Origin: Candidatus Omnitrophota bacterium
Lineage (GTDB): Bacteria; Omnitrophota; Gorgyraeia; JAFGHF01
Direction: 5' to 3'
Assembly: GCA_043805735.1 (NCBI GenBank)
Contig: JAZDHS010000024.1
Location: 2,792-66,791, forward strand
Length of the DNA: 64,000 bases
The notes below the pieces were generated by a model that worked only from the letters and a program-made list of their open reading frames with translations, ran no database searches and was not told the DNA's origin. Position 1 is the stretch's first letter. Each line of letters begins with the position of its first letter. Position numbers and translations under genes: made by a program. Of this stretch, positions 6,572-22,844 are shown one piece after another.

Positions 6572-6573
6572 CT

Positions 6574-7905
6574 ATGCTGCAGGCATTTGGCAATATTTTT
6601 CGTATTCCCGATTTAAGAAAAAAGATGCTCTTTACCCTGGGCCTTTTTGCCGTATACCGTCTGGGCGCCTTTATTCCCACTCCGGGTATCGACAGTGCCC
6701 GCCTAGCCCAGTTTTTTGACAACATCGCCAAATCGCAAGGTGGAACGCTCTTTGGCATCATGAATATGTTCAGCGGCGGGGCGATGCAGCGGTTAACCGT
6801 ATTCGCCTTAGGGATTATGCCCTATATTTCCGCTTCGATTATCTTACAGTTGCTCACCACGGTGATTCCTTTTCTGGAAAAAATGAGCAAGGAAGGCGAG
6901 GCCGGGCGCAAAAAAATCATTCAATACACGCGTTATGGCACTATCGCCTTGGCGGTCATCCAGTCGTTTTTCATCAGTTTATGGTTGGAAAATCCGGCTC
7001 ATTTTCAGGGCGTGCAAATAGTGCAGTTTATGGGCTGGCCTTTTAGACTCTTAACCGTGCTGACACTTACCACCGGCACGGCATTTATTATGTGGCTAGG
7101 CGAACAAATTCAGGAATTCGGGATTGGTAACGGCATATCTTTGATTATTACGATTGGTATTGTTTCGCGCGTGCCTTCGGCTCTTTATCAATTAGGGTTT
7201 TATTTGCGTAAAGGCCAAATGCAGCCGTTTGTTTTACTGTTGTTGGCAGTATTAATGGTGGCCGTTGTCTTGTCGGTAATTATGATTACCCAGGGGCAGC
7301 GCCGGATTCCCGTGCAATACGCCCGCCGGATCATCGGCCGTAAGGTCTATGGCGGCCAAAGCACCTATATCCCCTTAAGAGTGAATCACGCCGGGGTAAT
7401 CCCGATCATCTTTGCGCAGTCAATAATCTTATTCCCGGCGACCTTAGCCGGCTTAATGCCCAGTTCGCTGTTACAAAATCTGGCTACTTCGCTTACGGAG
7501 GGGGGCCTGCTCTATTTAATTTTATACACGGCCCTGATCGTTTTCTTTACCTATTTTTATACCGCCGTAACCTTTAACCCTATTGATGTGGCCGAAAACA
7601 TGCGTAAATACGGCGGCTTTGTCCCGGGTATCCGGCCGGGTAAACCAACAGCGCAATACTTTGATTTTATTTTAACCCGGATAACACTGCCCGGTGCCGT
7701 ATTTTTAGCTTTTATTGCCGTGTCGCCGCAAATGATCAGCGCCTGGCTTAAGATTCCTTATTTAATCGCGAGCTTCTTCGGCGGTACGGGACTGTTGATT
7801 ATCGTCGGTGTGATGCTCGATACCATTCGCCAAATAGAATCACACCTTTTGATGCGGCATTACGAAGGATTTATGAAAAAGGGAAGAATAAGAGGCCGGC
7901 GCTAA
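6574..7905 (+). CDS. secY: Preprotein translocase subunit SecY
   Basis: 443 aa, 10 TM pattern, conserved SecY motifs; synteny. Confidence 0.95.
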   Translation: MLQAFGNIFRIPDLRKKMLFTLGLFAVYRLGAFIPTPGIDSARLAQFFDNIAKSQGGTLFGIMNMFSGGAMQRLTVFALGIMPYISASIILQLLTTVIPFLEKMSKEGEAGRKKIIQYTRYGTIALAVIQSFFISLWLENPAHFQGVQIVQFMGWPFRLLTVLTLTTGTAFIMWLGEQIQEFGIGNGISLIITIGIVSRVPSALYQLGFYLRKGQMQPFVLLLLAVLMVAVVLSVIMITQGQRRIPVQYARRIIGRKVYGGQSTYIPLRVNHAGVIPIIFAQSIILFPATLAGLMPSSLLQNLATSLTEGGLLYLILYTALIVFFTYFYTAVTFNPIDVAENMRKYGGFVPGIRPGKPTAQYFDFILTRITLPGAVFLAFIAVSPQMISAWLKIPYLIASFFGGTGLLIIVGVMLDTIRQIESHLLMRHYEGFMKKGRIRGRR

Positions 7906-7906
7906 A

Positions 7907-8578
7907 ATGCGGCTGATTCTTTTAGGACCGCCCGGAGCAGGAAAAGGCACTCAAGCCAAATTGCTCTTTGAAAAATTTAAGCTTCCCCATATTTCTACGG
8001 GTGATATCCTGCGCGATGAGATGCGCGAACAATCGCCCTTGGGGATAAAAGTAGCGGCCTACGTCAAAAGCGGCGAATTGGTTCCCGACGCCATAGTGGT
8101 CGAGGTGGTGGCCAAAAGGTTAATTAAAAGCGACGCCCGGACCGGCTTTATTTTGGACGGTTTTCCGCGTACGGTAAATCAGGCCGAGGCCTTAGCCCAG
8201 AGTTTAAAAAAACAGTGCGCACCGATTGATTTGGTGCTTTATTTCGCCACAATCCCGGCCACCTGTGTTAAACGTCTTTGCGAAAGGCGGATTTGCGAAA
8301 AATGCGGGGCAATTTTTCACCTGACCAATATGCCGCCCAAGATCCCAGGAATTTGCGACCATTGCGGCGCGGAACTCTACTTAAGAGATGACGACCGGCT
8401 CGAAACTGTGCAAAAACGCCTGGAGGTATACCAAAATCAAACCGCTAGCCTTATTGAGTATTACAAAAAACAGGGGATCTTGCGCGAGGTTAGCGGTGAC
8501 CTGGAAGCCAAAGAACTATTTGTGCGACTTTTGGAGCTGTTTGGGCAAGAAAAACTGATCACCCCTGTAACGAAATGA
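7907..8578 (+). CDS. adk: Adenylate kinase (zinc-lid type, CxxC...CxxC)
   Basis: MRLILLGPPGAGKGTQA...; lid CEKCGAIFH...CDHCGAEL. Confidence 0.95.
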   Translation: MRLILLGPPGAGKGTQAKLLFEKFKLPHISTGDILRDEMREQSPLGIKVAAYVKSGELVPDAIVVEVVAKRLIKSDARTGFILDGFPRTVNQAEALAQSLKKQCAPIDLVLYFATIPATCVKRLCERRICEKCGAIFHLTNMPPKIPGICDHCGAELYLRDDDRLETVQKRLEVYQNQTASLIEYYKKQGILREVSGDLEAKELFVRLLELFGQEKLITPVTK

Positions 8579-9327: not shown

Positions 9328-9546
9328 ATGGCTAAAGAAGAACCGCTGCAAGTGGAAGGTACGGTTACCGAGTCCCTGCCCAATGCCACGTTTCGCGTGG
9401 AATTAGAAAACGGGCATAAAATTTTAGCACATATTTCCGGTAAGATGAGAATGAATTTTATTAGGATCTTACCTGGAGATAAGGTAACTGTAGAAATGTC
9501 CCCTTATGATTTAAGTAAAGGGCGCATTACCTACCGTAGTAAATAA
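9328..9546 (+). CDS. infA: Translation initiation factor IF-1
   Basis: 72 aa [41 protein letters not shown]. Confidence 0.95.
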
Positions 9547-9574
9547 TAGTTTATAGAAAAAGAGGATCAAGCTC

Positions 9575-9688
9575 ATGAAAGTACGCTCGTCCATAAAAAA
9601 GATTTGCGAAAAATGTAAAATTGTCAAGCGCGTGGGAATCTTACGCGTTATTTGCTCAAACCCCAAGCATAAACAAAGACAAGGATAA
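9575..9688 (+). CDS. rpmJ: 50S ribosomal protein L36 (not in ORF track; <60 aa)
   Basis: Manual translation [37 protein letters not shown]; AGAGGA SD; canonical position between infA and rpsM. Confidence 0.85.
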
Positions 9689-9694
9689 CTACAT

Positions 9695-10096
9695 ATGCCC
9701 AGGCTTATTGGAATTGACATACCTAAAGAAAAAAGAATTGAAATCGCCCTGACTTATATTTACGGTATTGGCAGAGCAACTTCCAACAGAGTTTTAAGCA
9801 TCGCCGGCATTAGTCCTGACGTACGGGCCAAGGATTTAACTGAAGATGAAATTGCCAAGTTAACCAACGTCATTCAAAAAGAGGCAAAAGTAGAAGGAGA
9901 TTTACGTAGAGAAATATCGCAAAATATCAAACGGCTGATGGATATCGGCAGCTGGCGCGGTTTAAGGCACAAAAAGGGCTTGCCGGTACGCGGGCAACGC
10001 ACCCGGACAAACGCCAGGACGCGTAAGGGTCCCCGTAAGACTGTAGGCGCATCGAAAAAGGCCAAGGAAACTGTTGCCGCAAAGGCCGCCCAATAG
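9695..10096 (+). CDS. rpsM: 30S ribosomal protein S13
   Basis: [26 protein letters not shown]... Confidence 0.95.
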
Positions 10097-10125
10097 AATT
10101 ACCGTGAATAACTAAGAGGAGAGCA

Positions 10126-10515
10126 ATGACCACCAAACCAAAAAAAACAAAGAAGAAGTTTCTTACGGATATTAGCATTTGTATCGCCCATATCCAGGCG
10201 ACATTCAACAATACGATTATTACGATTACCGATTTAAAAGGCAATGCCGTAGCTTGGGCCTCAAGCGGCGTAGTCGGTTTTAAAGGTTCAAAAAAATCTA
10301 CTCCTTTCGCCGCGCAGGTAGCCGCAGAGAATGTGGCCCGCCGGGCTAAGGAAATGGGGGTAAAACAAGTCGAAATCTTTATCAGCGGTCCGGGCTCGGG
10401 AAGAGAGTCGGCAATTCGCGCCATCCAGGCCGCCGGGCTTTCGATTACCGCAATCAGAGACGTAACGCCCATTCCACATAACGGATGCCGGCCCCCGAAA
10501 CGCAGGAGAGTATAA
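10126..10515 (+). CDS. rpsK: 30S ribosomal protein S11
   Basis: 129 aa; [18 protein letters not shown]...; S11 family. Confidence 0.95.
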
Positions 10516-11141
10516 TGGCGAGATACACTGGTCCATCATGCAGATTATGTAGAAGGGAAGGGGTTAAGCTCTTCTTAAAGGGAACCCGCTGTACGAGTGA
10601 AAAGTGCGCTTTAAATAAACGCGCCTTCCCGCCCGGACAGCACGGTAAAAATCGTATTAAGCTTTCCGATTACGCAGTGCAGTTGCGAGAAAAACAAAAA
10701 GTACGCCGCATCTACGGCTTAACCGAAAAACAATTCAGGCTCTATTTTAAAAAAGCTGAAAAAAGTAAAGGCGTTACCGGCACGGCGCTCTTGCAGTCCC
10801 TGGAAAGAAGGCTCGATAGCGTGGTTCTCAATTTAGGCTTTGCGCTTTCCCGGCAGCAGGCCCGCCAAATAGTAAAACACAAATTCCTTTTAGTCAATAC
10901 CAAACCGGTTGATGTGCCTTCTTTCTTAGTAAAACCCAGCGACATCATTACGATAAAAAATGACGAAGGCAAGATGAAGTTAATTAAGGAACTGCTTAAG
11001 GTCACCAAAGACAAAATGATTCCGGACTGGATTGCGTTGGATAAAGAGAAATTAGAGGCCAAAGTCATGCGCGTCCCGCGCCGGGAAGAAATACCTTATC
11101 CGATCCGCGAACAGCTAATCATTGAACTTTATTCAAAATAA
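10515..11141 (+). CDS. rpsD: 30S ribosomal protein S4
   Basis: [16 protein letters not shown]...; ORF-track start 10485 is an upstream extension. Confidence 0.9.
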   Translation: MARYTGPSCRLCRREGVKLFLKGTRCTSEKCALNKRAFPPGQHGKNRIKLSDYAVQLREKQKVRRIYGLTEKQFRLYFKKAEKSKGVTGTALLQSLERRLDSVVLNLGFALSRQQARQIVKHKFLLVNTKPVDVPSFLVKPSDIITIKNDEGKMKLIKELLKVTKDKMIPDWIALDKEKLEAKVMRVPRREEIPYPIREQLIIELYSK

Positions 11142-11160
11142 ACAAGTAGCAGGAGGAAAA

Positions 11161-12153
11161 ATGGGAATTAAGTGGAGAAATTTTGAGATGCCTAAAAAGC
11201 TGGAAATGATCCAGGAGGAGAATTTATCCCCGGATTCCTACGGCAAATTTATTGCCGAACCTTTTGAACGAGGCTACGGAATCACCATCGGTAACTCCAT
11301 AAGAAGAATTTTGCTTTCTTCCATTGAGGGCAGCGCGATTACTTCCATTAAAATCGAAGGGGTGCTTCATGAGTTTTCCACTATGCCCGGAGTCGTTGAG
11401 GATGTGCCGGAAATAATTCTCAACATTAAAAAGTTAACTCTAAGGGGGCACACCAAAAACCCGAAAACAATTTTTATTAAGGCTGAGAAGAAGGGCGAGG
11501 TCACCGCGGCGGATATCATTACTGATGAAACCATCGAGGTGGTCAATCCCGAGCTGCACATCGCCACGCTTTCCAAAAATAGCAAATTTTTTGTGGAAAT
11601 GGAAGTCGGCCGGGGACGAGGCTATGTGCCTGCGGAAAAAAACAAAAAAGAATCACAGAGTATCGGCGTAATTCCGATTGATTCGCTTTTTTCCCCGATT
11701 ACCAAAGTGAATTTTCACGTTGAAAACACTAGGGTCGGCCAGATGACCGATTACGACAAACTGATTTTGGAAATCTGGACGAATAGAGGCATCGGCCCCA
11801 AAGATGCGCTGCTTTACGCGGCCAATATCCTGCAAAAGCACCTCGAGGTTTTTATTGGATTCGGAAAACTCCCTGAAGAAGAAGAGCTACAGGAGAGTTC
11901 CGAAGACCAGGAACTCTATGATAAGCTCCGACAGCCAATTTCCGAACTGGAGTTATCGGTCAGAAGCAGCAACTGCCTTGAGGAGGCGCGGATTAAAACT
12001 ATCGGCGACCTGGTCCAAAAATCCGAGATGGAAATGCTCAAATACCGTAATTTCGGCAAAAAGTCGCTGGCCGAGATTAATAATATCCTCGGCGGTATGA
12101 ACCTTTCGCTGGGAATGAAGATTGACTCCAAAAAACTTAAGAAAAAACAATAA
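11161..12153 (+). CDS. rpoA: DNA-directed RNA polymerase subunit alpha
   Basis: MGIKWRNFEMPKKLEMI...; N-terminal domain and C-terminal domain motifs; GGAGG SD upstream. Confidence 0.9.
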   Translation: MGIKWRNFEMPKKLEMIQEENLSPDSYGKFIAEPFERGYGITIGNSIRRILLSSIEGSAITSIKIEGVLHEFSTMPGVVEDVPEIILNIKKLTLRGHTKNPKTIFIKAEKKGEVTAADIITDETIEVVNPELHIATLSKNSKFFVEMEVGRGRGYVPAEKNKKESQSIGVIPIDSLFSPITKVNFHVENTRVGQMTDYDKLILEIWTNRGIGPKDALLYAANILQKHLEVFIGFGKLPEEEELQESSEDQELYDKLRQPISELELSVRSSNCLEEARIKTIGDLVQKSEMEMLKYRNFGKKSLAEINNILGGMNLSLGMKIDSKKLKKKQ

Positions 12154-12170
12154 GGTAAGGAATAAAAACA

Positions 12171-12743
12171 ATGCGCCATCGTAAGTTTTCACAAAGGCTG
12201 AGCAGGCCACTAGGAGCTAGGCGTGCAACTGTACGTAATCTGGTGCGGGCACTGCTTAAATACCAACGTATTAAAACAACTAGAGCGAAGGCAAAATTTA
12301 CGCAGCGTGTTGTTGAGCGGCTGATCACTATCGGTAAAGAAGACTCGCTCCACGCTCGTCGAAAGGCCTATCAATTTTTGAATGATCGAGACATGGTCCA
12401 GCATCTTTTTAAGAAAATTGTACCGCTGTTTAAAAACCGAAACTCAGGATTTACCCGGGTAATTCACTTGCCGATCTACCGAGCAGGTGATGGCACAAGC
12501 CTGGTTCTTTTAGAGCTCACCGAACAGCTACCGATCGTTAAGCCGGTCCATTCCAAAAAAGAAAAGGCCGAAAAGCCCGTTCAAGGGAACAAGCCTGAAC
12601 CAGAAAAAACACTAAAGACGGAAACGATTAAAGAAGAAACAAAACACCCGCACAAATTTGAAAAACCCTTCAAAAAAGAAAAACCGAAGAAATTTTTAGG
12701 AGGGTTACGCCGGCTATTTAAGAAAGAAAGGGATTCTTTGTGA
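12171..12743 (+). CDS. rplQ: 50S ribosomal protein L17 with ~70-aa K/E/P-rich C-terminal extension
   Basis: MRHRKFSQRLSRPLGARRATVRNLV...; core ~120 aa then low-complexity KPEPEKTLKTETIKEETKHPHKFEKPFKKEKPKKF. Confidence 0.9.
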   Translation: MRHRKFSQRLSRPLGARRATVRNLVRALLKYQRIKTTRAKAKFTQRVVERLITIGKEDSLHARRKAYQFLNDRDMVQHLFKKIVPLFKNRNSGFTRVIHLPIYRAGDGTSLVLLELTEQLPIVKPVHSKKEKAEKPVQGNKPEPEKTLKTETIKEETKHPHKFEKPFKKEKPKKFLGGLRRLFKKERDSL

Positions 12744-13912
12744 AAATAGCCAAAAGGCTGGAGAAAGTTAGCCCTTCGCTTACTTTAGAAGTGACTAACT
12801 TGGCGAAAAAGCTCAAGGACCAAGGACGGGCGATAGTAAACTTTGCTGGAGGCGAACCGGATTTTGATACTCCGGAACATATAAAATTGGCAGCAATAGC
12901 GGCAATCAAGGAAGGGTTCACTAAATACACTCCTTCCTCCGGTACGGCCCAACTGAAAAAAGCAATTGCCCAAAAGTTCCTTCAGGACAATCACCTATCT
13001 TATACCCCCGAACAGATCATCGTCAGTTGCGGAGCTAAGCACTCTATTTACAACATAATCCTCGCCCTCTGTGAAAAAGGCGATGAGGTAATTATGGGCT
13101 CGCCGTACTGGCTGAGTTATCCGGAAATGGTGGCCTTAGCCGAGGCCAAAGCTAAAATCGTTAAAACCCCACTGAAAAAAAATTTTAAACTCGATAAAGA
13201 GTCGCTCCAGCGCAGTATCAATAAAAAGAGCAAGCTCCTTATTCTCAATAGCCCCTCTAATCCCACCGGCGCAGTTTATACCCGTGACGAACTCAAAGAG
13301 ATTGTTGAGGTGGTGCTGCGCCATAATCTCTATGTGATTAGTGACGAAATTTACGAGAAACTGATTTACGATGGCCAAGAGCATGTCTCCTGCGCCTCTT
13401 TAGGAAAAGAAATCTTCCAGCGCACGATTGTTGTCAATGGCGTTTCTAAAAGTTACGCGATGACGGGCTGGAGAATCGGCTACTTAGCCTCACCCGACAA
13501 GGAAATTGTCAATGCCATCGATACCCTCCAAAGCCATTCTACCTCTAACCCCTGTTCGATCAGCCAAAAGGCTACTTTAGAAGCACTCACCACCACCGAC
13601 AACACCCAGATGCAAAAAATGGTGCAGGAGTTTCAGTCCAGAAGAGACATTCTCCTCCAGGGGCTCGACGCGGCGAAGATTCCCTATGTCAAGCCTCAAG
13701 GGGCCTTTTACGTCTTCTGCAATATCGCCAAGACCGGCCTGAATTCAATAACGTTCTCTCGAGAACTCCTGGAACAGGCAGAGGTAGCGGTCATTCCCGG
13801 AATAGCCTTCGGCAAAGACGACTACGTACGCTTGAGCTTTTCCACCAGCGCTGAGCAAATTCGCGAAGGAACGCGGCGAATTAAAGATTGGCTTAAGTCG
13901 CGTAATCGCTAA
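12740..13912 (+). CDS. PLP-dependent aminotransferase class I/II (aspartate aminotransferase-like), GTG start
   Basis: 390 aa; SKSYAMTGWRIGY PLP-Lys motif; overlaps rplQ stop. Confidence 0.75.
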   Translation: MKIAKRLEKVSPSLTLEVTNLAKKLKDQGRAIVNFAGGEPDFDTPEHIKLAAIAAIKEGFTKYTPSSGTAQLKKAIAQKFLQDNHLSYTPEQIIVSCGAKHSIYNIILALCEKGDEVIMGSPYWLSYPEMVALAEAKAKIVKTPLKKNFKLDKESLQRSINKKSKLLILNSPSNPTGAVYTRDELKEIVEVVLRHNLYVISDEIYEKLIYDGQEHVSCASLGKEIFQRTIVVNGVSKSYAMTGWRIGYLASPDKEIVNAIDTLQSHSTSNPCSISQKATLEALTTTDNTQMQKMVQEFQSRRDILLQGLDAAKIPYVKPQGAFYVFCNIAKTGLNSITFSRELLEQAEVAVIPGIAFGKDDYVRLSFSTSAEQIREGTRRIKDWLKSRNR

Positions 13913-13940
13913 AACAAAAGCACTGCGGATCTAATCAAAC

Positions 13941-15206
13941 ATGGGCCAGACTATTGTCGAAAAAATACTCTCAAGCCACAGCCGCAAGAAGGTCAAGGCG
14001 GGGGATATCGCTATCTGTGATATCGATTTTTGTTTTGGCCAAGACGGCACTTCCGAACTCGTCATTGACAACTTCCGTTCTCTGGGAAAGAAACAGGTGT
14101 TCGATAAAAAGAAGTTTGCTATTGTTATCGACCACAGCACGCCCAGCCCCAAACAATCCATCTCCAATATTCATAGTAAACTAAGAAGTTTCAGTAAGGA
14201 ACAGGGCACGCTCCTTTTTGATATCGGCTGCGGGGTCTGTCATCAGGTTATCCCGGAATCGGGAGTTATACTTCCCGGAAGCGTTGTCATCGGGGCTGAC
14301 TCGCATACCTGCACTTACGGAGCGCTCAACGCCTTCGCCTGTGGACTAGGCTCCACTGATATCGCCATTACCTTAGCCAGTGGCAAAAATTGGTTCAAGG
14401 TTCCTCAAACCATTAAAATTGTGGTCAAGGGCCGCTTGGCTTTAGGTGTATCGGCCAAAGACATTGTGCTTTATGTTATCGGGACGCTCACCGCTAACGG
14501 CTGCACTTATAAAGCCGTAGAGTTTAGCGGCCCGGCAATGGATAGCTTAAGTATGGACGGGCGATTCACCATCAGCAATATGGCCGTAGAAATGGGTGCA
14601 AAATGCGGAATTTTTTGCGCCGATGCCAAAACACGAGCGTGGCTGGGTAACAAAACAAAAAGGAAAATAAGAGCAGTTGCTGCCGACGAAGACGCCCGTT
14701 ATGAAAAGGTAGTTGAATTTGATATATCCAAGCTCACCCCGCAGATAGCCAAACCGCATAGCGTAGATAACGTTGTCACTATTGACCAGATGAAAGGCAC
14801 GCCGATTCAGCTCGCCTATTTAGGTACCTGCACCAACGGCAGACTCCAAGACCTGACTATTGCCGCAAATATTGTCAAAGGCAGAAAGGTAAAAGCAGGA
14901 GTAACTTTTGTAGTTGCCCCGGCTTCTAAAATTATCTACCTTGAGGCGGCAAAACGTGGTATATTAGAAACCTTGACCGCTGCTGGAGCAGTAATACTTC
15001 CCCCTGGATGCGGACCATGCGTGGGAACGCATGCCGGCGTACCTGCCGACGGACAAAACGTTATTTCGACCGCGAATAGAAATTTTAAAGGCCGGATGGG
15101 TAATCCCAGCGCCTTTATTTATCTGGCATCTCCGGCCACGGTAAGCGCTAGCGCCCTGACCGGAGAAATCAGCAATCCCGCATCCTATTTAAGAAAGAAG
15201 AGATAA
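13941..15206 (+). CDS. leuC: Aconitase-family hydratase large subunit, archaeal-type LeuC/HacA (3-isopropylmalate dehydratase or homoaconitase type)
   Basis: 421 aa; Fe-S ligand Cys pattern (CGPC...); length typical of two-subunit LeuCD type. Confidence 0.7.
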   Translation: MGQTIVEKILSSHSRKKVKAGDIAICDIDFCFGQDGTSELVIDNFRSLGKKQVFDKKKFAIVIDHSTPSPKQSISNIHSKLRSFSKEQGTLLFDIGCGVCHQVIPESGVILPGSVVIGADSHTCTYGALNAFACGLGSTDIAITLASGKNWFKVPQTIKIVVKGRLALGVSAKDIVLYVIGTLTANGCTYKAVEFSGPAMDSLSMDGRFTISNMAVEMGAKCGIFCADAKTRAWLGNKTKRKIRAVAADEDARYEKVVEFDISKLTPQIAKPHSVDNVVTIDQMKGTPIQLAYLGTCTNGRLQDLTIAANIVKGRKVKAGVTFVVAPASKIIYLEAAKRGILETLTAAGAVILPPGCGPCVGTHAGVPADGQNVISTANRNFKGRMGNPSAFIYLASPATVSASALTGEISNPASYLRKKR

Positions 15207-15208
15207 CT

Positions 15209-16294
15209 ATGGATTTAAGGACGCTACTACAGGTGGCTTTGGAAAAAGGCGCATCGGATTTACATATTACCGAAAACGCGCCCCCGATGCTGCGCATTAA
15301 CGGAAAACTCAATTTCACTGATTTTAATAAGCTTTCGCGGGAGGATACGAAAAATTTAGTCTATAGCATCCTTACCGACGACCAGAAAAAAATCTTTGAG
15401 AAGACTTTTGAACTTGATTTTTCTTTTACCTTGCCTGGGGTGCAAAGAGTAAGAATAAACGTACATATGCAAAGAGGGAGCGTTGAGGCCGCGTTTCGCT
15501 TGGTGAGTTTAAAAATCCGCACAATCAGAGAATTGGGGCTGCCGCTCATCGCCGAAGAGCTGGCGCGCAAACCATCAGGCCTGGTTTTGATTACTGGGCC
15601 AACGGGAACGGGTAAAACCACAACCCTGGCGGCAATGGTCGATCTAATTAATAATGAGAAAGAATACATTATCGTTGCTATTGAAGACCCGATTGAATTT
15701 TTGCATTACAATAAGAAAAGCGTAATCAAGCAAAGGGAACTCTATTCCGACACTCTTTCTTTTTCCGCCGCGCTTAAACATGCGCTACGTCAGGATCCCA
15801 ACGTCATTGTAGTCGGTGAAATGCGCGACCTGGAAACCATTTCCACGGCGCTGACAGCTGCGGAAACCGGGCATTTAGTGCTGGCTACTTTGCATACGCC
15901 GGACGCACCGCAAACAATTGACCGGATTATTGATGTCTTTCCGCCGTATCAACAAAGCCAGGTTGTCGTGCAGCTTTCCAATTCCCTCCAGGGCATTATC
16001 GCGCAACGGCTCTTGCCCAGGGCCGATCGCCCGGGAAGAATAGTGGCGACCGAAGTGCTGATCGCGACCACAGCCGTACGCAATTTAGTCCGTGAACACG
16101 AAACGGAACAACTACTCACCCTTATTCAAACCGGCTCGCAATACGGTATGCATACGATGGACAAGTGCCTGCGAGAACTTTACGAAAGAAAGATTATTTC
16201 CATCGACACCGCAATGGCGCACTGTAAAGATGCGGCGGAGTTTTCCCAGTCCAGCGGTAGAGGCGGCGGGGCAGAACCACAGACCTTTCGATGA
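15209..16294 (+). CDS. pilT: Type IV pilus twitching-motility retraction ATPase PilT
   Basis: 361 aa; GASDLHI, GPTGTGKTTT Walker A, IEDPIEF, VVGEMRD, TGHLVLATLHT; starts 3 nt after leuC-like stop, ATGA overlap with next gene. Confidence 0.85.
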   Translation: MDLRTLLQVALEKGASDLHITENAPPMLRINGKLNFTDFNKLSREDTKNLVYSILTDDQKKIFEKTFELDFSFTLPGVQRVRINVHMQRGSVEAAFRLVSLKIRTIRELGLPLIAEELARKPSGLVLITGPTGTGKTTTLAAMVDLINNEKEYIIVAIEDPIEFLHYNKKSVIKQRELYSDTLSFSAALKHALRQDPNVIVVGEMRDLETISTALTAAETGHLVLATLHTPDAPQTIDRIIDVFPPYQQSQVVVQLSNSLQGIIAQRLLPRADRPGRIVATEVLIATTAVRNLVREHETEQLLTLIQTGSQYGMHTMDKCLRELYERKIISIDTAMAHCKDAAEFSQSSGRGGGAEPQTFR

Positions 16295-16797
16295 AAAACA
16301 AGGCCACAGCCTATAAATTCGGCGATAATATCAGCACTGACCTGATTATTTCCGGGCGCTATAAATTCGCGATCCGCGATATGAAGGAACTAGCCAAACA
16401 TGCCATGGAAGATGCCGACCCTGATTTTTACCAGAAGACGCAAGGAAAACCTTCTTTCGTAGTTGGCGGCTGGAATTTTGGCATGGGCTCCTCGCGCGAA
16501 CAGGCCCCCTGGGCGCTCAAAGAGGCCAATGTCCAGGCAGTTATTGCCAAAAATTTCGCCCGTATTTTTTACCGCAATGCCTTTAATATCGGGCTGCCTT
16601 TGGTTGAGTGCAATACCGATTTAATCGCTAATGAAGATATTTTAGAACTGGATTTAGATAAGAGCTACTTAAAAAATATTACCAAAAATCGCGAAATTCC
16701 CATTGAGCCAATCCACCCGACGATGAGTGCGTTACTGAAGGCCGGTGGGGTAATCAGCTATTTAAAAGAACATAAGGATTTAAACTTTGAGGCATAG
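16291..16797 (+). CDS. leuD: Aconitase-family small subunit (LeuD/HacB type)
   Basis: 168 aa swivel-domain protein; partner of 13941..15206. Confidence 0.7.
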   Translation: MKNKATAYKFGDNISTDLIISGRYKFAIRDMKELAKHAMEDADPDFYQKTQGKPSFVVGGWNFGMGSSREQAPWALKEANVQAVIAKNFARIFYRNAFNIGLPLVECNTDLIANEDILELDLDKSYLKNITKNREIPIEPIHPTMSALLKAGGVISYLKEHKDLNFEA

Positions 16798-17875
16798 AGT
16801 AACGATTATTCCTGGTGATGGCATCGGGCAGGAAGTAAGCCTGGCCGCTAAAAGATGCATTGACTCTACCGGCGTGGAAATTCAATGGGAAGAGGCATTG
16901 GTCGGAGAAGAGGCCTTAAAGAAGTACGGAGAGATTTTGCCGCCGGCCACTATTGAGTCGATTAAAAAAAATAAAGTGGCAATTAAAGGCCCGGTCATTA
17001 CTCCCATCGGTAAAGGGTTTCGCTCGGTTAACGTGCAATTAAGGCAGGTGCTTGACCTCTATGCTTGCGTACGTCCCTGTAAATGGTATGAAGGGGTCAA
17101 GGCCCCCTACACACATATCGACCTGGTCGTAATTAGGGAAAACACCGAAGACCTTTATGCCGGTATTGAGTTTGATATCCACGAGCAGTCGACTAAAGAA
17201 CTAATTTCGTGCATTCAAAAATTAGGCGGTAAAACTATCCGGCCGGATAGCGCCTTAAGCATTAAACCGATTTCGCGCACCGGCTCAGAAAGAATAGTCC
17301 GCTTCGCCTTCGAGTATGCCCTGGCGAATAAAAGAAAAAAAGTCACCGCCGTACACAAAGCCAATATCATGAAGTTTACCGACGGGCTGTTTATGCGGGT
17401 AGCCCAGGAAGTGGCCAAGGAATACGAGGGCCGAGTTGCTTTTGAGGAAAGATTAGTCGATAATATGTCGATGCAATTAGTGCAAAAACCGCAAGACTAT
17501 GACTGCCTGGTCCTGCCTAATCTTTACGGAGACATTCTTTCGGACTTATGCGCCGGCTTAGTCGGCGGCCTGGGCGTGGCGCCGGGCGCGAATATCGGCA
17601 AAGAATACGCCCTGTTTGAACCCACGCACGGCAGCGCTCCCAAGTACCAGGGACTGAATAAAGCCAATCCTACGGCAACTATTCTTTCCGGGGTAATGAT
17701 GTTGCGGCATTTAGGAGAAGAGCAGGCCGCGCAAAGACTGGAGCAGGCGGTAAGCGCGGTAATTAAAGAAGCGAAGTTCGTGACCTATGATTTAAAAGCC
17801 GACCGCAATGATCCCCAGGCCTGCGGGACAAGCCAAATGGCCGACGCGATTATTGCCAAACTTAAAAGGCGTTAA
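16787..17875 (+). CDS. leuB: 3-isopropylmalate / isocitrate dehydrogenase family (beta-decarboxylating dehydrogenase)
   Basis: 362 aa; IPGDGIGQEV N-terminus, NLYGDILSD motif; length favours LeuB but NAD-IDH/HICDH not excluded. Confidence 0.7.
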   Translation: MRHRVTIIPGDGIGQEVSLAAKRCIDSTGVEIQWEEALVGEEALKKYGEILPPATIESIKKNKVAIKGPVITPIGKGFRSVNVQLRQVLDLYACVRPCKWYEGVKAPYTHIDLVVIRENTEDLYAGIEFDIHEQSTKELISCIQKLGGKTIRPDSALSIKPISRTGSERIVRFAFEYALANKRKKVTAVHKANIMKFTDGLFMRVAQEVAKEYEGRVAFEERLVDNMSMQLVQKPQDYDCLVLPNLYGDILSDLCAGLVGGLGVAPGANIGKEYALFEPTHGSAPKYQGLNKANPTATILSGVMMLRHLGEEQAAQRLEQAVSAVIKEAKFVTYDLKADRNDPQACGTSQMADAIIAKLKRR

Positions 17876-17879
17876 GACA

Positions 17880-18803
17880 ATGAGAATAGCTGTTATTGGC
17901 GCGGGAAATGTCGGGGCGGCAACGGCGATGCGTATCGCCGAAGCGGATTTGGCCGACGTTGTCCTGATCGATATTGTTGAAGGCAAAGCCGCGGGAATCG
18001 CCCTGGATATCTCAAGCGCCTCGGCGATTGTGCGCCACTCGCGTTCTTTAATCGGCAGCAGTGATTACGCTGATCTGGAGGGCGCGGAGATTGTAGTAAT
18101 GACGGCGGGCTTCGCCCGTAAACCCGGGGAAAGCCGCGACGATTTACTGTTGAAAAATGCGGCGGTAGTAAAAGAGGTTGCCGCGCAAATCGCGCGATAT
18201 TGCCCGGAGGCGATTGTCATCGTTGTCACCAATCCCCTGGACGCGATGGCCTACCTGTTGTATAAGACGACTAACTTTGCCTGCGCGCAAATCATCGGCA
18301 TGGGCGGAACCTCGGACTGCGCGCGATTGAATATGCTCATTGCCGATGAGTTAAATACAAACGTGCAAAATATTCAGTCGATGATCATCGGGGCCCATGG
18401 CGACAGCATGGTGGTCTTACCCAGGCTTTGCACAGTCCAGGGCATCCCGATCAGTGATTTATTAAGTGAAGAAAAGGTCAGTGATATTATCGAACAAACG
18501 CGCCATTTTGGCGCCCATGTTGTCGAGCTCTTAGGGCAGGGCAGCGCCTATTATGGCCCCTCCGCCGGGGTACTACAATTAGTCGATGCTATTGTCCACG
18601 ACCGCAAGAGCGTACTCTGTGCCTCTACTTTTATCGACGGGCAATATGGTTTAAACAATATCTTTATCGGCATTCCGGTAAAGATTGGGCGCAGCGGCAT
18701 TGAAGAAATCATCGAGCTGGAGTTAAACGAAGAAGAAAAAACCGATTTTATTTATTCGGTTAACAAGGTAAGAGAAACAATAGAGAAATTAGACCCTGCT
18801 TAA
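17880..18803 (+). CDS. mdh: Malate dehydrogenase (LDH-like family)
   Basis: MRIAVIGAGNVGAATA Rossmann N-terminus; ~308 aa from ATG 17880 (ORF-track 17808 is an extension). Confidence 0.8.
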   Translation: MRIAVIGAGNVGAATAMRIAEADLADVVLIDIVEGKAAGIALDISSASAIVRHSRSLIGSSDYADLEGAEIVVMTAGFARKPGESRDDLLLKNAAVVKEVAAQIARYCPEAIVIVVTNPLDAMAYLLYKTTNFACAQIIGMGGTSDCARLNMLIADELNTNVQNIQSMIIGAHGDSMVVLPRLCTVQGIPISDLLSEEKVSDIIEQTRHFGAHVVELLGQGSAYYGPSAGVLQLVDAIVHDRKSVLCASTFIDGQYGLNNIFIGIPVKIGRSGIEEIIELELNEEEKTDFIYSVNKVRETIEKLDPA

Positions 18804-18830
18804 AAGGAATGCGCAGGTCTATCCTCTGGG
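18791..18830. repeat. REP-like palindromic hairpin element, copy 2 (variant with compensatory stem changes), overlapping mdh stop codon
   Basis: AGACCCTGC-TTAAAAGGAAT-GCGCAGGTCT + ATCCTCTGGG; same loop and flank as copy 1. Confidence 0.65.
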
Positions 18831-18844
18831 ATTAGGAGCCTAGC

Positions 18845-20029
18845 ATGGACGAAGCTAATAGAATGAAAAGATTACCACTGTATCTTTTTACCATTCTTGA
18901 CCATCTTAAAGAAGAGGCAAAAAGTAAAGGCTTGGAAATGGTCGATCTGGGGATGGGCAATCCCGATCTGCCCACACCGAAACATATCATCGATGAACTC
19001 TGTGAGCAGGCCCGTAAACCGGAGAACCACGGTTATCCCCGGCCAAACGAGCCGGCGGAGAAAAAATTAAAACTAGCGATTGCCAACTGGTATAAAGAAC
19101 GTTTTAACGTTGACTTAGACCCACAAACAGAGGTCCTGCCTTTAATCGGTTCCAAAGAAGGCGTGGCTCATCTTTCGCTGGCATTCCTCAATCACGACGA
19201 CATGGCCCTCGTACCCAGTCCAGGATATCCGGTGCACTTTAACGGGGTAGTGATGGCCGGTGGCATCCTTTATAATATCCCGATGACCGAAGAAAATGAT
19301 TTTAAGCCGGATTTAAAAAATATCAGCAAGAGCGTAATCAATATGTCGAAAATGCTTTTCATCAGCTATCCGCATAACCCGACCGGCGCGGTGGTTGACC
19401 TGGATTTTTATAACGAGGTGGCTCATTGGTCAAAGAACAAAGATATTATTATCGCCAGTGACGTGGCCTATTCGGACATCGTCTTTGACGGCTATAAGGC
19501 ACCGAGCATGCTGCAGGTAAAAGGTATTAAAGATAAGGTCATTGAATTCCACACGCTCTCTAAATCTTACAATATGGCCGGCTGGAGGATCGGGTTTGCT
19601 GTCGGCTCAAAAGCGATTATCACCTCGCTGGCAAAAACCAAAAGTTATATCGATTTCGGCATCTTTCCGCCGATTCAATACGCGGCCATCAAGGCCTTAA
19701 GCGGCCCACAGGATTGCGTGAAGCAATTAGTGGAAATCTACAAAAAGAGAATGGATGTATTTGTCGATGGCCTAAACGGCATCGGCTGGAACGTCAAAAA
19801 ACCCAAAGCCACTTTTTATGTCTGGGCGCGGATTCCTTTAAAATATGACGCCCTCACTTCGATGGAATTTGCCGAGCTTTTAGTCAACGAGGCCGGGGTA
19901 GTCGCGGCTCCCGGCATCGGTTTTGGCGAATACGGTGAAGGTTATGTGCGTTTTGCACTCATCGAAGAAGAAAAGAAACTTAAATTGGCCTGCGAACGGA
20001 TCAAAAAAGTATTGGCTATGAGAAGCTAG
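18845..20029 (+). CDS. PLP-dependent aminotransferase class I/II (LL-DAP/alanine aminotransferase-like)
   Basis: 394 aa; SKSYNMAGWRIGF PLP-Lys motif. Confidence 0.7.
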   Translation: MDEANRMKRLPLYLFTILDHLKEEAKSKGLEMVDLGMGNPDLPTPKHIIDELCEQARKPENHGYPRPNEPAEKKLKLAIANWYKERFNVDLDPQTEVLPLIGSKEGVAHLSLAFLNHDDMALVPSPGYPVHFNGVVMAGGILYNIPMTEENDFKPDLKNISKSVINMSKMLFISYPHNPTGAVVDLDFYNEVAHWSKNKDIIIASDVAYSDIVFDGYKAPSMLQVKGIKDKVIEFHTLSKSYNMAGWRIGFAVGSKAIITSLAKTKSYIDFGIFPPIQYAAIKALSGPQDCVKQLVEIYKKRMDVFVDGLNGIGWNVKKPKATFYVWARIPLKYDALTSMEFAELLVNEAGVVAAPGIGFGEYGEGYVRFALIEEEKKLKLACERIKKVLAMRS

Positions 20030-20054
20030 GTCATATTTGGGCTTGTTTTTTTCA

Positions 20055-20083
20055 TTGACAAGTCTAACAAAGTATAGTAAAAT
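20055..20083 (+). promoter_or_regulatory. Sigma70-like promoter TTGACA-17-TAAAAT
   Basis: Hexamers and spacing read directly; ~120 nt upstream of diguanylate cyclase ATG. Confidence 0.45.
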
Positions 20084-20205
20084 CGACAAAACTGTAAATG
20101 CAGGGGACCGATCAGTAATTTAAGCACAGGGGTGGCAGGGGAAAAGCGCATCCCTATTTTTTTTAGTTTATTGTAAATAAATTTAAAAACAAATTTATTA
20201 AGCGC

Positions 20206-21420
20206 ATGAAAAAAACATTTTTAGATTTACGCATTGTAGTGCTGGCTGTGGGGCTAATTGGATTAGTGGTCCTTAGACAACTGATCCAGTCCTTTGGCGT
20301 TTCTTTAGGTTATCTTTATATTACCCTGATTTCTTTGGCCGGGTTTTGGTTTGGCGTAAGGGGGGGGCTAATCGCCGCGCTAGTCGCCGCTTTAATCTGT
20401 ATATTGGAGCTTAGCCACTTTAGTTATTGGCAAAACAGAAGCATCGCGATGATGGGAATGTCTTTACGTATCCTGGTTTATATTCTAACAGGCCTCTCCA
20501 TCGGCTATTTTGCCACTGAGGAAAAAAAGCTAAAAGAAAAACTGCAGGCCCTTTCTCAATTTGACGAGCTCACCGGATGCGTAAATTACCGTTGGGCAAT
20601 GAAGTTATTGGAGAACGAAATCTTACGCGCCAAACGCTATCACAACGAAATGTCGGTGGTGCTGATCGACCTCGATCATTTCAAAAAAGTGAATGATACT
20701 TACGGCCATCTCGTCGGTAACGACGTACTTAGGATTTTCGCCCAAGTTTTGGCGCAAAGCGTGCGCAATGTAGACACCGTTTGCAGATACGGGGGGGAGG
20801 AATTTTTACTTATCCTTCCCGAGGCTAGTTTGCAACAGGCAGCGTTTGTCCTACAGCGAATTAAATCAAAACTTGCCCAAACAAAAATTACCTCCACTTT
20901 CTTAAAGGCTGAAAAGTCTCTGGGCATCACCTTTAGCGCCGGCGGCGCGGCATTTCCTTTAAACGGCGATAAACTCGAGAGCCTAATTCATATTGCCGAC
21001 ACCGCACTGTATCAGGCCAAACAATCGGGAAGAAACCGCTCTATCGTTGATCGGCGCCGATGGGCGAGGGTTAAACCGCCGGGTGATTTTAAACTCGAAA
21101 TCACCCAGTTGTCGACTAGTGATTTTCAGCGCTTTGAGATTGAAAATATTGGTGTTGGAGGCATGCTGATTCTTTTCCCCCAGGCAGTAAGCTACGCCCG
21201 CAATGTGCTCGTTCTTTTTCCCCAACGTTTCCCATATGTGAATTTTTCCTCAACGCTGAATATTCCCGGAAAAACCTACTCTTACGATGTTCAGTGTAAG
21301 GTAATCCATCAGTCTAAACAAGACCAAAGCTGGCACCGCGTCGGAGTGCAATTTTTGGACTTAGCCAAGGACAGAGAAGAAAAGCTCGCCCATTATTTAC
21401 AAAGTCAGGAAGTCAATTAG
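20206..21420 (+). CDS. Membrane-anchored diguanylate cyclase (GGDEF; GGEEF active site) with C-terminal PilZ-like region
   Basis: N-terminal TM segments; RYGGEEF; C-terminal ~110 aa beta-rich domain. Confidence 0.75.
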   Translation: MKKTFLDLRIVVLAVGLIGLVVLRQLIQSFGVSLGYLYITLISLAGFWFGVRGGLIAALVAALICILELSHFSYWQNRSIAMMGMSLRILVYILTGLSIGYFATEEKKLKEKLQALSQFDELTGCVNYRWAMKLLENEILRAKRYHNEMSVVLIDLDHFKKVNDTYGHLVGNDVLRIFAQVLAQSVRNVDTVCRYGGEEFLLILPEASLQQAAFVLQRIKSKLAQTKITSTFLKAEKSLGITFSAGGAAFPLNGDKLESLIHIADTALYQAKQSGRNRSIVDRRRWARVKPPGDFKLEITQLSTSDFQRFEIENIGVGGMLILFPQAVSYARNVLVLFPQRFPYVNFSSTLNIPGKTYSYDVQCKVIHQSKQDQSWHRVGVQFLDLAKDREEKLAHYLQSQEVN

Positions 21421-21440
21421 GCCTTTTAAGTGCTTTTACG

Positions 21441-21473
21441 GCCTCAAGATTATACTTGAGGCTTTTTTATTTT
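21441..21473 (+). terminator. Rho-independent terminator GCCTCAAG-attata-CTTGAGGC + TTTTTTATTTT
   Basis: 8-bp perfect stem plus U-tract 20 nt after DGC stop. Confidence 0.8.
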
Positions 21474-21484
21474 GGCAGTATAAT
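21456..21484 (+). promoter_or_regulatory. Candidate promoter TTGAGG-17-TATAAT for marC-family gene (overlaps terminator 3' arm)
   Basis: Hexamers read directly; AAAGGAG SD follows. Confidence 0.35.
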
Positions 21485-21512
21485 ACAATTCGGGAAAGGA
21501 GCGAAGTTGGCC

Positions 21513-22100
21513 ATGTGGAAAGAGTTCTTGCTTGTCTTTATTCCGTTATTCGTAGCCGTAGATGCCATCGGCGTACTGCCGATATTTATCTCGCTTACCC
21601 AAGGGTACGGTAAAAGAGAAAAAAATAGGATTATCATACAATCGATTTTTACTGCGCTTTGCCTAGCAATTGCTTTTCTATTTCTGGGTAAGGCGGTCTT
21701 TCGCTTCCTCAATATCACGATCGGTGATTTCTTAGTCGCCGGAGGGATCCTGCTTTTCTGCATCGCCATCCTCGACATCGTCAATCCCACTAAACAACGC
21801 CGGATACCCACCCAGGAAATTGCCAGCGTACCTTTGGGGACACCCTTAATCGTTGGTCCAGCGGTGTTAACCACTTCGCTGATCATGCTGCAGCAGCACG
21901 GCTTAGTTCTAACGCTGGGAGCAGTTTTAGCTAACGTGCTCCTTGGTGCACTAATCTTTTCGCTCTCAGGAGTAATTATCAAAACAATCGGCGAGTCCGG
22001 CACACGCGCTCTTTCCAAGATTGCGGCCTTATTTTTATCCGCCATAGCCGTAATGATGGTGCGCAAAGGAATCATCTTTTTACTCGCCCTCCGCGTATAA
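21513..22100 (+). CDS. MarC-family (UPF0056) integral membrane protein
   Basis: MWKEFLLVFIPLFVAVDAIGVLPIFISLT... typical MarC N-terminus; 6 TM. Confidence 0.7.
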   Translation: MWKEFLLVFIPLFVAVDAIGVLPIFISLTQGYGKREKNRIIIQSIFTALCLAIAFLFLGKAVFRFLNITIGDFLVAGGILLFCIAILDIVNPTKQRRIPTQEIASVPLGTPLIVGPAVLTTSLIMLQQHGLVLTLGAVLANVLLGALIFSLSGVIIKTIGESGTRALSKIAALFLSAIAVMMVRKGIIFLLALRV

Positions 22101-22133
22101 CCAGCCCGAAACACTACCAATCGGCATTAACGC

Positions 22134-22165
22134 TTGACAAAGTAGAATGAAACAGGTATTCTACT
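22134..22165 (+). promoter_or_regulatory. Promoter TTGACA-17-TATTCT containing perfect palindrome AGTAGAAT-n9-ATTCTACT (22141-22165), candidate operator
   Basis: Seen directly; palindrome spans spacer and -10. Confidence 0.45.
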
Positions 22166-22187
22166 TTAACTATCACGAGGAAAACCG

Positions 22188-22844
22188 ATGAGCGACGTAA
22201 AGACAAAATCGCTATCTGCGCTGGAACAAAAAATGCAGGGTTTAAGCAGTGACTCACTGCGTTACCAAATTCTTAACCATACCAAGCATTTTAAGACCTC
22301 CTGGGTAGAACTGGGCCAGGCCCTTTATTCAGCGTGGAAAGATAAGCTCTATAAGGAGTGGGGTTTTAGCACCTTCGAGGCCTATACGGCGAAAGAAATC
22401 GGTATCCGTTCACAAACCGCGCTCAAACTTTTGCGTTCGTATTATTTTCTGGAAAAGGAAGAACCGCGATTACTGCGTAAAGAATATGCCGATCAGGCCC
22501 AGGCCTCGAGCATGCCGACGTTGGACTCAATCGATACCTTAAGGTTGGCTCAAAAAAAGAGCTTGGACAAGGAAGATTTTTTACGGATTAAAAATAATGT
22601 GCTCGAAAAGGGCAAAGATGCCAAAGAGATCAAAAAAGACTTAACCCTCTTAATGCAGCAAAGGCAAGAACTGGAGCCGGAAGAAGCGCGGCAAAAAAGG
22701 AAACTCACCCAGTTACGACGGTTGATTAGTGTTTTAACATCGCTGCGCGAGGAAATAGCGGTTGCCAAGGCTCTACCCGCAGCGATGATTAAAGAGATCG
22801 ACAAGTTAATCCGCAATCTAACCGAACAAATGCCACAACCATAA
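22188..22844 (+). CDS. Hypothetical protein, N-terminal HTH-like domain plus C-terminal coiled coil
   Basis: 218 aa; no confident family; K/E/Q-rich heptad-like C-terminus. Confidence 0.4.
   Translation: MSDVKTKSLSALEQKMQGLSSDSLRYQILNHTKHFKTSWVELGQALYSAWKDKLYKEWGFSTFEAYTAKEIGIRSQTALKLLRSYYFLEKEEPRLLRKEYADQAQASSMPTLDSIDTLRLAQKKSLDKEDFLRIKNNVLEKGKDAKEIKKDLTLLMQQRQELEPEEARQKRKLTQLRRLISVLTSLREEIAVAKALPAAMIKEIDKLIRNLTEQMPQP

Follow-up and report, generated by a model that had tools for sequence, protein, structure and literature searches.

We examined a 64,000-nucleotide stretch (below, the window) of the Candidatus Omnitrophota assembly GCA_043805735.1, and found that its pilT, the gene for a type IVa pilus retraction ATPase, splits the genes for the large and small subunits of an iron-sulfur (Fe-S) hydratase, which we call acnL and acnS, within a run of central-carbon genes at the tail of the ribosomal alpha operon. 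The same order is kept across a large part of the phylum, PilT has diverged together with the RNA polymerase alpha subunit RpoA, and one clade has lost both hydratase genes and kept pilT where it was. Taken as a whole, the account that we favor and hold to be fairly probable is an ancient insertion of an ordinary pilT between the genes of a hydratase that acts as aconitase, with pilT hitch-hiking on a housekeeping operon and no mechanistic partnership between motor and enzyme. What appears to be undescribed is the arrangement, a pilus motor gene splitting Fe-S hydratase genes at the end of the alpha operon in at least four orders; its components all belong to known families. Searches of the accessible literature, on pilT in Omnitrophota and Velamenicoccus among other subjects, found no description of the acnL-pilT-acnS order.

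All genes of the run lie on the plus strand. acnL (13941..15206; 421 amino acids; family NF001614) stops with TAA at 15204-15206, and a 2-nt spacer (CT) separates it from the pilT ATG at 15209. pilT (15209..16294; 361 amino acids; TIGR01420) stops with TGA at 16292-16294, overlapping the acnS ATG at 16291-16293, and the resulting ATGA (16291..16294), read from the sequence, is a candidate site of translational coupling. acnS (16291..16797; 168 amino acids; TIGR02087), for the small, swivel-domain subunit, overlaps by 11 nt the gene icd (16787..17875; Iso_dh, 360 bits) for a probable isocitrate dehydrogenase (IDH) of NADP type. The gene mdh (17880..18803; NF004863; Ldh_1_N and Ldh_1_C), for a malate dehydrogenase (MDH) of the LDH-like family, follows with its likely start at ATG 17880, 4 nt past the icd stop, the model match beginning at residue 23-25 of the longer open reading frame (ORF) 17808-18803. 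The usual adjacency of hydratase subunit genes is not kept, with the 1086-nt pilT between them. Directly upstream are secY-adk-map-infA-rpmJ-rpsM-rpsK-rpsD-rpoA-rplQ, and two aminotransferase genes, AT1 and AT2, complete the tight run, which reads rpoA, rplQ, AT1, acnL, pilT, acnS, icd, mdh, AT2. A preliminary description of this DNA, made from the letters alone, had given the same ORF coordinates, a pilT start 3 nt past the large-subunit stop and the ATGA overlap, all matching the ORF list and raw sequence exactly; its placement of pilT between the two subunit genes is confirmed by sequence and profile searches, and profile search likewise confirms its flanking malate dehydrogenase and two aminotransferases (Ldh_1_N/C and two Aminotran_1_2 proteins).

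On profile and structure comparisons, pilT here is an ordinary, intact gene for a type IVa pilus retraction ATPase. Its product scores 459.4 bits against TIGR01420, the PilT/PilU family (cut-off 319.1), with residues 3-343 on profile positions 2-342 of 343. The closest solved relatives are Geobacter PilT (5zfq, 384 bits; 6ojx, 378 bits), then the Aquifex and Pseudomonas proteins; solved PilT structures score 324-384 bits against 263 for PilU (9n32) and 112 for PilB, and PilU or PilB identity was rejected on these scores. Walker A (GPTGTGKTTT), the Asp box (IEDPIEF), Walker B (GEMRD) and the His box (TLHT) are present, align to Geobacter PilT and are conserved in more than 80 relatives, and the PilT-specific C-terminal motif, AVRNLVRE here, aligns to AIRNLIRE. 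The preliminary call of a genuine PilT therefore stands, C-terminal region included. A protein 100% identical to it is annotated as Candidatus Omnitrophota PilT. Neither an extra domain nor an altered motif was seen by profile search, structure alignment or the alignment of relatives. Fusion of PilT to hydratase domains was considered and rejected: P0044 and P0048, the long hits of the PilT family, come from other organisms and consist of two PilT units in tandem.

Conservation and descent in Omnitrophota

The scan took one genome per GTDB species and the best 80 PilT loci, against which the window proteins were run by tblastn; almost all of these loci are from Omnitrophota metagenome-assembled genomes (MAGs) or single-cell genomes (SAGs). 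The acnL-pilT-acnS order is present in 53 of the 80, among them the closed 1.55-Mb chromosome CP070837.1 and, also in the conserved set, the single-cell genome L006. More broadly, 72 loci keep pilT in the neighborhood that runs from rplQ and AT1 to icd and mdh, with AT1 upstream of the block in 67 of these. Two loci begin at pilT on a contig edge and continue with acnS-icd-mdh. Fourteen have aminotransferase-pilT without hydratase genes, followed by icd or an icd paralog in 10 and with no Iso_dh found after pilT in 4. Two are partial (L058, which is acnL-pilT-mdh, and L062), both without acnS; three have a tandem pilT pair elsewhere in the genome, and five lack informative context. Three PilT homologs of 68-76% identity share the whole order secY-adk-map-infA-(rpmJ)-rpsM-rpsK-rpsD-rpoA-rplQ-aminotransferase-Aconitase-PilT-Aconitase_C-Iso_dh-Ldh. 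The gene order rplQ-AT-acnL-pilT-acnS-icd-mdh offers a simple marker, deep in the phylogeny, for much of the uncultured phylum Omnitrophota.

The full arrangement is found in several deep clades, including that of the window. A neighbor-joining tree of PilT and an independent tree of RpoA plus AT1 recover the same major groups, and the co-divergence of PilT and RpoA (distance matrices, Mantel r=0.857 with 0 of 999 permutations as high; Spearman 0.80) fits one ancient, vertically inherited insertion. The GC content of pilT, overall and at third codon positions (GC3), matches that of the neighboring genes. Thirteen of the 14 hydratase-less loci (L053, L059-L061, L064, L065, L068, L070, L072, L074, L077, L078 and L082), of the form aminotransferase-pilT-icd, group as a single nested clade in the tree of PilT, and 11 of them stand together in the RpoA+AT1 tree; the fourteenth, L080, is apart on a long branch. 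Spacers flanking pilT in the loss clade are only 6-166 nt, so that no acnL or acnS remnants are left. Seven loci could be placed through the table of genomes given by Seymour et al. (2023, PMC10066038), each of them in GTDB class Koll11, the equivalent of Gorgyraia and Velamenicoccia of those authors. The full form is from Gorgyraeales (L017), Gygaellales (L030, L042) and Duberdicusellales (L048, L075), and the loss form from Zapsychrales (L059, L074). The most parsimonious history would be one old insertion of pilT between acnL and acnS that was passed on vertically, with both hydratase genes removed cleanly in a single deletion at a later time; the insertion would have occurred once, in an early ancestor of the sampled Omnitrophota lineages.

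Several loci depart from the common pattern. In four members of the loss clade (L059, L060, L064 and L068) icd is replaced by a divergent Iso_dh paralog (36-37% identity) without the Ser-x-Asn and Lys-Tyr motifs described below, followed in L060 by lipB. In L013 (2245-8047) pilT-acnS-icd-mdh is preceded by tpiA, secG, an MFS transporter gene, marC, glgC and a small acetyltransferase gene, with no rplQ-AT1-acnL; this left flank, on a contig of about 2x coverage, is due either to a real rearrangement or to chimeric assembly. L062 has an intact 421-amino acid AcnL-like ORF (5720-6985) upstream of pilT (6998-8047), acnS being absent from the locus. This ORF has 37% identity to the window AcnL and lacks the three Fe-S Cys ligands, GADSH and NRNFKGR, and it may be a decaying relic or a pseudoenzyme. 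That it is a paralogous "true LeuC" was rejected, since it has lost all catalytic residues and has no close relative but a 99% identical twin. In L035, L041 and L057 a PilT of 62-64% identity is paired in tandem with a second PilT-family gene (about 41% identity) outside the ribosomal/tricarboxylic acid (TCA) cycle context; in L057 the second gene scores 421 bits on TIGR01420 and the order is argS-lipB-pilT'-pilT-aminotransferase-gatA. The tandem form may show where in the phylum the arrangement ends.

The marker also exposes several MAGs whose taxonomic labels look wrong. Fifteen loci (L004, L009, L019, L023, L028, L033, L036, L037, L039, L046, L051, L053, L065, L072 and L077) carry the Omnitrophota operon in records titled uncultured Planctomycetia/Planctomycetales, Deltaproteobacteria, or Candidatus Elulimicrobium (assigned to the Patescibacteria group in NCBI taxonomy). 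Six of them are present in the RpoA+AT1 tree, where they nest among Omnitrophota; the deposited labels are probably in error.

The hydratase and its metabolic partners

Profile searches bear out the earlier description of the pair as a LeuCD-type hydratase. AcnL scores 564 bits against NF001614, the aconitase/isopropylmalate isomerase (IPMI) large-subunit family (cut-off 385), and AcnS 167.6 bits against TIGR02087, the LeuD/DmdB small-subunit family (cut-off 108.95); the [4Fe-4S] Cys-ligand motifs of AcnL (GADSHTC, GTCTNGR and GCGPCVG) and the GSSREQAP motif of AcnS are conserved across orthologs. Equivalog cut-offs are not reached, by AcnL for LEU2 (475.4 vs 610.65) or HacA_Meth (442 vs 550), nor by AcnS for leud (164.9 vs 245.85) or HacB2_Meth (166.5 vs 230), and AcnA and AcnB models score far under their cut-offs on the pair. 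Among solved structures AcnL matches Methanocaldococcus jannaschii IPMI LeuC at 369 bits and HacA at 341 bits, and AcnS is equidistant from HacB (131 bits) and LeuD (130 bits); the pair as a whole was judged to lie at like distances from IPMI and homoaconitase. The AcnS substrate loop, IISGRYKF(A/S)I(T/R)D, has an invariant GRYKF core and reads GRYKFAI in the window; its YKFA aligns with YL-RT of HacB, whereas IPMI LeuD (MJ1277) has YLVY. By this loop, the pair is a distinct specificity class within the LeuCD/HacAB-type enzymes.

The LeuCD (MJ0499/MJ1277) and HacAB (MJ1003/MJ1271) pairs of M. jannaschii share both families with AcnL/AcnS, along with subunit sizes of about 420 and 168 amino acids, the three Cys ligands and the small-subunit GSSRE. 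AcnL/AcnS differs from them in reaching no equivalog cut-off, in a loop of GRYKF(A/S)I rather than YLVY or YLRT, in having its genes split by pilT, and in its partners, which are IDH and MDH, not LeuA/LeuB or AksA/AksF. The monomeric aconitases AcnA and AcnB are single chains of about 880 amino acids, whereas the AcnL/AcnS heterodimer totals about 590; the proposed role is the same, interconversion of citrate and isocitrate feeding an NADP-dependent IDH in a horseshoe TCA cycle.

By its motifs and scores, the dehydrogenase is probably of isocitrate type, with NADP signatures, and not LeuB. All its top NCBIfam and PDB matches are IDHs (6lky, 365 bits; Archaeoglobus fulgidus NADP-IDH 2iv0, 331 bits), against about 150-220 bits for isopropylmalate dehydrogenase structures and 195.7 bits for the leuB model (cut-off 353.2); the best NCBIfam IDH equivalog gives 378 bits, below its cut-off of 510. 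In Escherichia coli IDH, Ser113 and Asn115 form the site for the isocitrate gamma-carboxylate, and Lys344 and Tyr345 determine binding of the NADP 2'-phosphate. The window protein has FRSVNV aligned with Ser113-x-Asn115 and APKY aligned with Lys344-Tyr345, where the NAD-dependent 6lky has APDI, and both motifs are conserved across loci. LeuB and homoisocitrate dehydrogenase identities were rejected on motifs and scores, and the "leuC-leuD-leuB" label of the preliminary description is probably wrong. MDH scores 387.9 bits against NF004863 (cut-off 283) and is borderline for the equivalog TIGR01763 (349.8 vs 351.85). AT1 (12740..13912; Aminotran_1_2, 273.6 bits) is an aspartate-aminotransferase-like class I/II enzyme, its best NCBIfam match being asp_aminotase_Arch at 440.6 bits, under the equivalog cut-off of 550. 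AT2 (18845..20029; Aminotran_1_2), similar to LL-diaminopimelate/alanine aminotransferases, scores 516.4 bits against NF006756 (cut-off 507); it follows mdh in L001 and L006 only, and is confined to the window's own clade.

Because their gene partners are a probable NADP-IDH and an MDH, AcnL and AcnS are probably the cell's aconitase in a horseshoe TCA cycle. Hydratase, NADP-IDH, MDH and aspartate-type aminotransferase would together make a biosynthetic "horseshoe" module, leading from citrate through isocitrate to 2-oxoglutarate and interconnecting oxaloacetate, malate and aspartate. A horseshoe cycle, with an oxidative branch from citrate synthase to 2-oxoglutarate, has been inferred for Omnitrophota (Williams et al., 2021, PMC8542988), and among 176 complete genomes of the phylum IDH occurs in 165 and MDH in 166 (bioRxiv 10.64898/2026.06.07.730766). 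Only 3 of 14 Omnitrophota MAGs proved to have AcnA, and 9 of the remaining 11 encode two enzymes of LeuCD type, labeled "aconitase family" (PMC8542988, supplementary note); Williams et al. suggest that one of the two may be aconitase (PMC8542988). We noted that the three AcnA-bearing Ace Lake MAGs (two Aceula species and Zapsychrus) are all Zapsychrales, the order of the two placed loci without operon hydratase. This points to complementary distributions of AcnA and the operon hydratase, such as non-orthologous displacement of a two-subunit aconitase by AcnA would give. The arrangement described here lends added support to a LeuCD-type aconitase. If the assignment is true, an uncharacterized two-subunit aconitase would fill the "missing aconitase" gap in Omnitrophota reconstructions. 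The assignment also corrects an annotation trap, in that the "LeuC/LeuD/LeuB-like" genes most likely encode the aconitase and NADP-isocitrate dehydrogenase of a horseshoe TCA cycle.

Transcription and the competing explanations

Upstream of the block, rpoA (11122..12153, plus strand), which belongs to the alpha ribosomal protein operon, and rplQ, for ribosomal protein L17 (12171..12743, plus strand), are recognized as ORFs whose orthologs in L001-L003 match RNA_pol_L/RNA_pol_A_bac/RNA_pol_A_CTD and, at the orthologous position, Ribosomal_L17; rpoA is conserved upstream in most loci. The end of rplQ at 12743 overlaps the GTG start of AT1 at 12740 by 4 nt. A promoter and terminator consensus scan of 9500-22500 found such sites no more frequent than in shuffled sequence; the best promoter-like site (20055-20083, 11/12 matches) and the terminator-like sites (20138-20155 and 21440-21463) all lie past the end of AT2 at 20029. 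About 24 of some 57 full loci (about 40%) share the ATGA (-4) overlap of pilT and acnS by a start-codon heuristic that agrees with the gene calls in L001-L003, and independent calls also give it in L001 and L002. With this recurrence, the spacing is compatible with the co-transcription with the alpha operon and the translational coupling proposed earlier.

The identity and order of the genes, the spread of the arrangement, its joint divergence and the loss of the hydratase with pilT kept were seen directly; co-transcription, aconitase activity and the cause of retention we infer, the last as follows. The central-carbon module is appended to the rpoA-rplQ end of the alpha operon with little or no intergenic space, and pilT would most likely be transcribed within this long housekeeping polycistron, with the ATGA overlap frequently coupling translation of pilT to that of acnS. 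Such hitch-hiking would give constitutive, growth-linked expression of an essential pilus retraction motor, and the gene order would have been frozen since breaking it anywhere would upset the expression of acnS, icd and mdh. pilT stays in place after loss of the hydratase; therefore the link is to the housekeeping transcription unit, not to the enzyme.

A real partnership, in which PilT and the Fe-S hydratase interact or regulate each other, for instance so that retraction is tied to citrate, iron or redox state, and in which selection holds pilT between the subunit genes, could also be read from the long survival of acnL-pilT-acnS, across up to about 45% RpoA sequence divergence, from the recurrence of the ATGA coupling in about 40% of loci, and from the full-length AcnL-like ORF of L062, which persists directly upstream of pilT with all Fe-S ligands lost. 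We regard this as improbable, and give a slightly smaller chance still to functional coupling of the two by a complex or coupled translation, with retraction and host attachment tied to citrate, iron or redox and the L062 protein a non-catalytic remnant. The functional tie implied by the preliminary description is not supported, in view of the clade that lost both hydratase genes and kept pilT between aminotransferase and icd: all 14 loci without the pair, 13 of them in that one nested clade, retain pilT in place. Single losses tell likewise against partnership, acnS being absent from L058 and L062 and acnL from L013, as do the conventional tandem pilT pairs of L035, L041 and L057 outside this neighborhood and a PilT without extra domain or altered motif. 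Among 5.8 billion proteins the dead AcnL of L062 has its 99% identical twin as sole close relative, which marks it as a relic of a single lineage. That the ATPase is no pilus motor here, a recruited hexameric ATPase whose other housekeeping role explains the operon position, is highly improbable. Such a role would suit a gene in a housekeeping operon rather than a pil cluster, and a 64 kb window in which a scan of nearly all ORFs of at least 150 amino acids found no other pil genes. Against it stand the full-length match to the PilT model at 459 bits with all boxes and an AIRNLIRE-type motif, and the nearly full-length alignment with Geobacter PilT at 384 bits. In other bacteria pilT is commonly found apart from the pil clusters. 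Clostridium perfringens is such a case (PMC6958937), and Seymour et al. (2023, PMC10066038) report gene sets for type IVa pili, thought to attach the bacteria to host cells, from most genomes in each of the Omnitrophota classes. An assembly or binning artifact, which the preliminary description had raised for a locus that does come from a MAG, or a recent horizontal insertion in one genome, has practically no probability left: the order occurs in 53 independent species-level assemblies, including a closed chromosome and a SAG, pilT has the base composition of its neighbors, and PilT co-diverges with RpoA. Both possibilities were rejected on these grounds.

The reading of the pair as a genuine isopropylmalate/citramalate isomerase (LeuCD), or as a bifunctional enzyme, with the block an amino acid biosynthesis cluster, is unlikely in our judgment, if clearly worth keeping in view. 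The best solved relative of AcnL is the isopropylmalate/citramalate isomerase large subunit of M. jannaschii (369 bits), homologs are named 3-isopropylmalate dehydratase by their sources, and two aminotransferases flank the block; pathways for all 20 amino acids are reported from more than 75% of the species-representative genomes (Seymour et al., 2023, PMC10066038), and a LeuCD must then exist somewhere. Opposed to these are the LEU2 (475 vs 610.65) and leud (164.9 vs 245.85) scores, an invariant GRYKF(A/S)I loop that differs from the YLVY of IPMI, and a partner dehydrogenase of IDH type that falls short of the leuB model. A scan of nearly all ORFs of at least 150 amino acids in the 64 kb window turned up no leuA, leuB or ilv gene, and the operon pair is absent from the clade with the Zapsychrales loci, the AcnA-bearing MAGs being of that order. 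Two LeuCD-type pairs are carried by related MAGs (PMC8542988). The preliminary description held that a leuABCD set elsewhere in the genome would settle the function as leucine biosynthesis; the logic runs the other way, a second LeuCD pair, as reported in related MAGs, arguing against a leucine role here.

Several points weigh against the favored account of an aconitase operon with a hitch-hiking pilT. The nearest solved relatives of the hydratase are IPMI/citramalate isomerase and homoaconitase, and we found no paper in the literature on a characterized two-subunit (LeuCD-type heterodimer) aconitase. The complementarity with AcnA comes from three MAGs of one study and two placed loci, matched at the level of the order, and the trees are neighbor-joining trees of one or two proteins without bootstrap support. 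Co-transcription is judged from spacing alone, and the polycistron may be interrupted in some lineages: in about a dozen loci pilT is followed by a non-homologous spacer of 83-336 nt, often resembling a hairpin or terminator. pilT-acnS spacers of 60-336 nt are found in L010, L012, L015, L024, L030, L037, L038, L044, L046, L071 and L076, with long inverted repeats or a hairpin plus T-run in many. Conserved elements within them were sought and rejected. The spacers are unrelated between loci and seem to have been inserted independently; in some lineages they may reduce read-through into acnS. Finally, the long-kept interleaving and the dead AcnL of L062 leave some room for a non-neutral link.

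Precedents and neighboring genes

pilT has been shown experimentally to lie in a housekeeping operon in C. perfringens, in pilT-ftsA-ftsZ, for which the rationale is unknown (PMC6958937). As in Omnitrophota, a pilus retraction ATPase gene there accompanies essential housekeeping genes away from pil clusters, with synteny conserved in relatives; pilT comes first, before cell-division genes, and co-transcription was established by RNA-seq (PMC6958937). The Omnitrophota pilT, by contrast, is internal, splits the subunit genes of one enzyme and follows the ribosomal operon, its co-transcription being predicted from spacing. Extended spc/alpha operons (secY, adk, map, infA, rpoA) offer a second likeness, in that unrelated housekeeping genes ride ribosomal-protein transcripts; the Omnitrophota extension differs from the usual ones in adding central-carbon enzymes and a pilus motor, and the papers searched contained no such combination. 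The arrangement suggests that in these ultra-small, probably host-attached bacteria the retraction motor is one of the housekeeping functions, expressed alongside ribosomal and central-carbon genes. It leaves knowledge of the working mechanism of PilT or of the hydratase unchanged.

Other features of the window were noted in passing. Its L17 protein (12171-12743, plus strand) has 190 amino acids with a long Lys/Glu-rich C-terminal extension, and orthologs range from 175 to 233 amino acids. Right after the block, 20206-21420 (plus strand) encodes a membrane-anchored diguanylate cyclase with a C-terminal PilZ domain (GGDEF, 156 bits; PilZ, 36 bits), with the promoter-like site 20055-20083 as its own and a strong terminator-like hairpin at 21440-21463. 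No homolog of this gene was found in the other loci; a link of its product to pilus control through cyclic di-GMP is conceivable. A 217-amino acid minus-strand ORF at 21456-22120 almost exactly mirrors a MarC-family gene (21456-22100, plus strand), and is most likely a spurious antisense ORF. Between aroB and dnaE, 56789-58116 (minus strand) holds a gene similar to the XrtA/PEP-CTERM-system-associated ATPase (323.8 bits vs cut-off 324.5), which is followed by a 182-amino acid ORF without family match.

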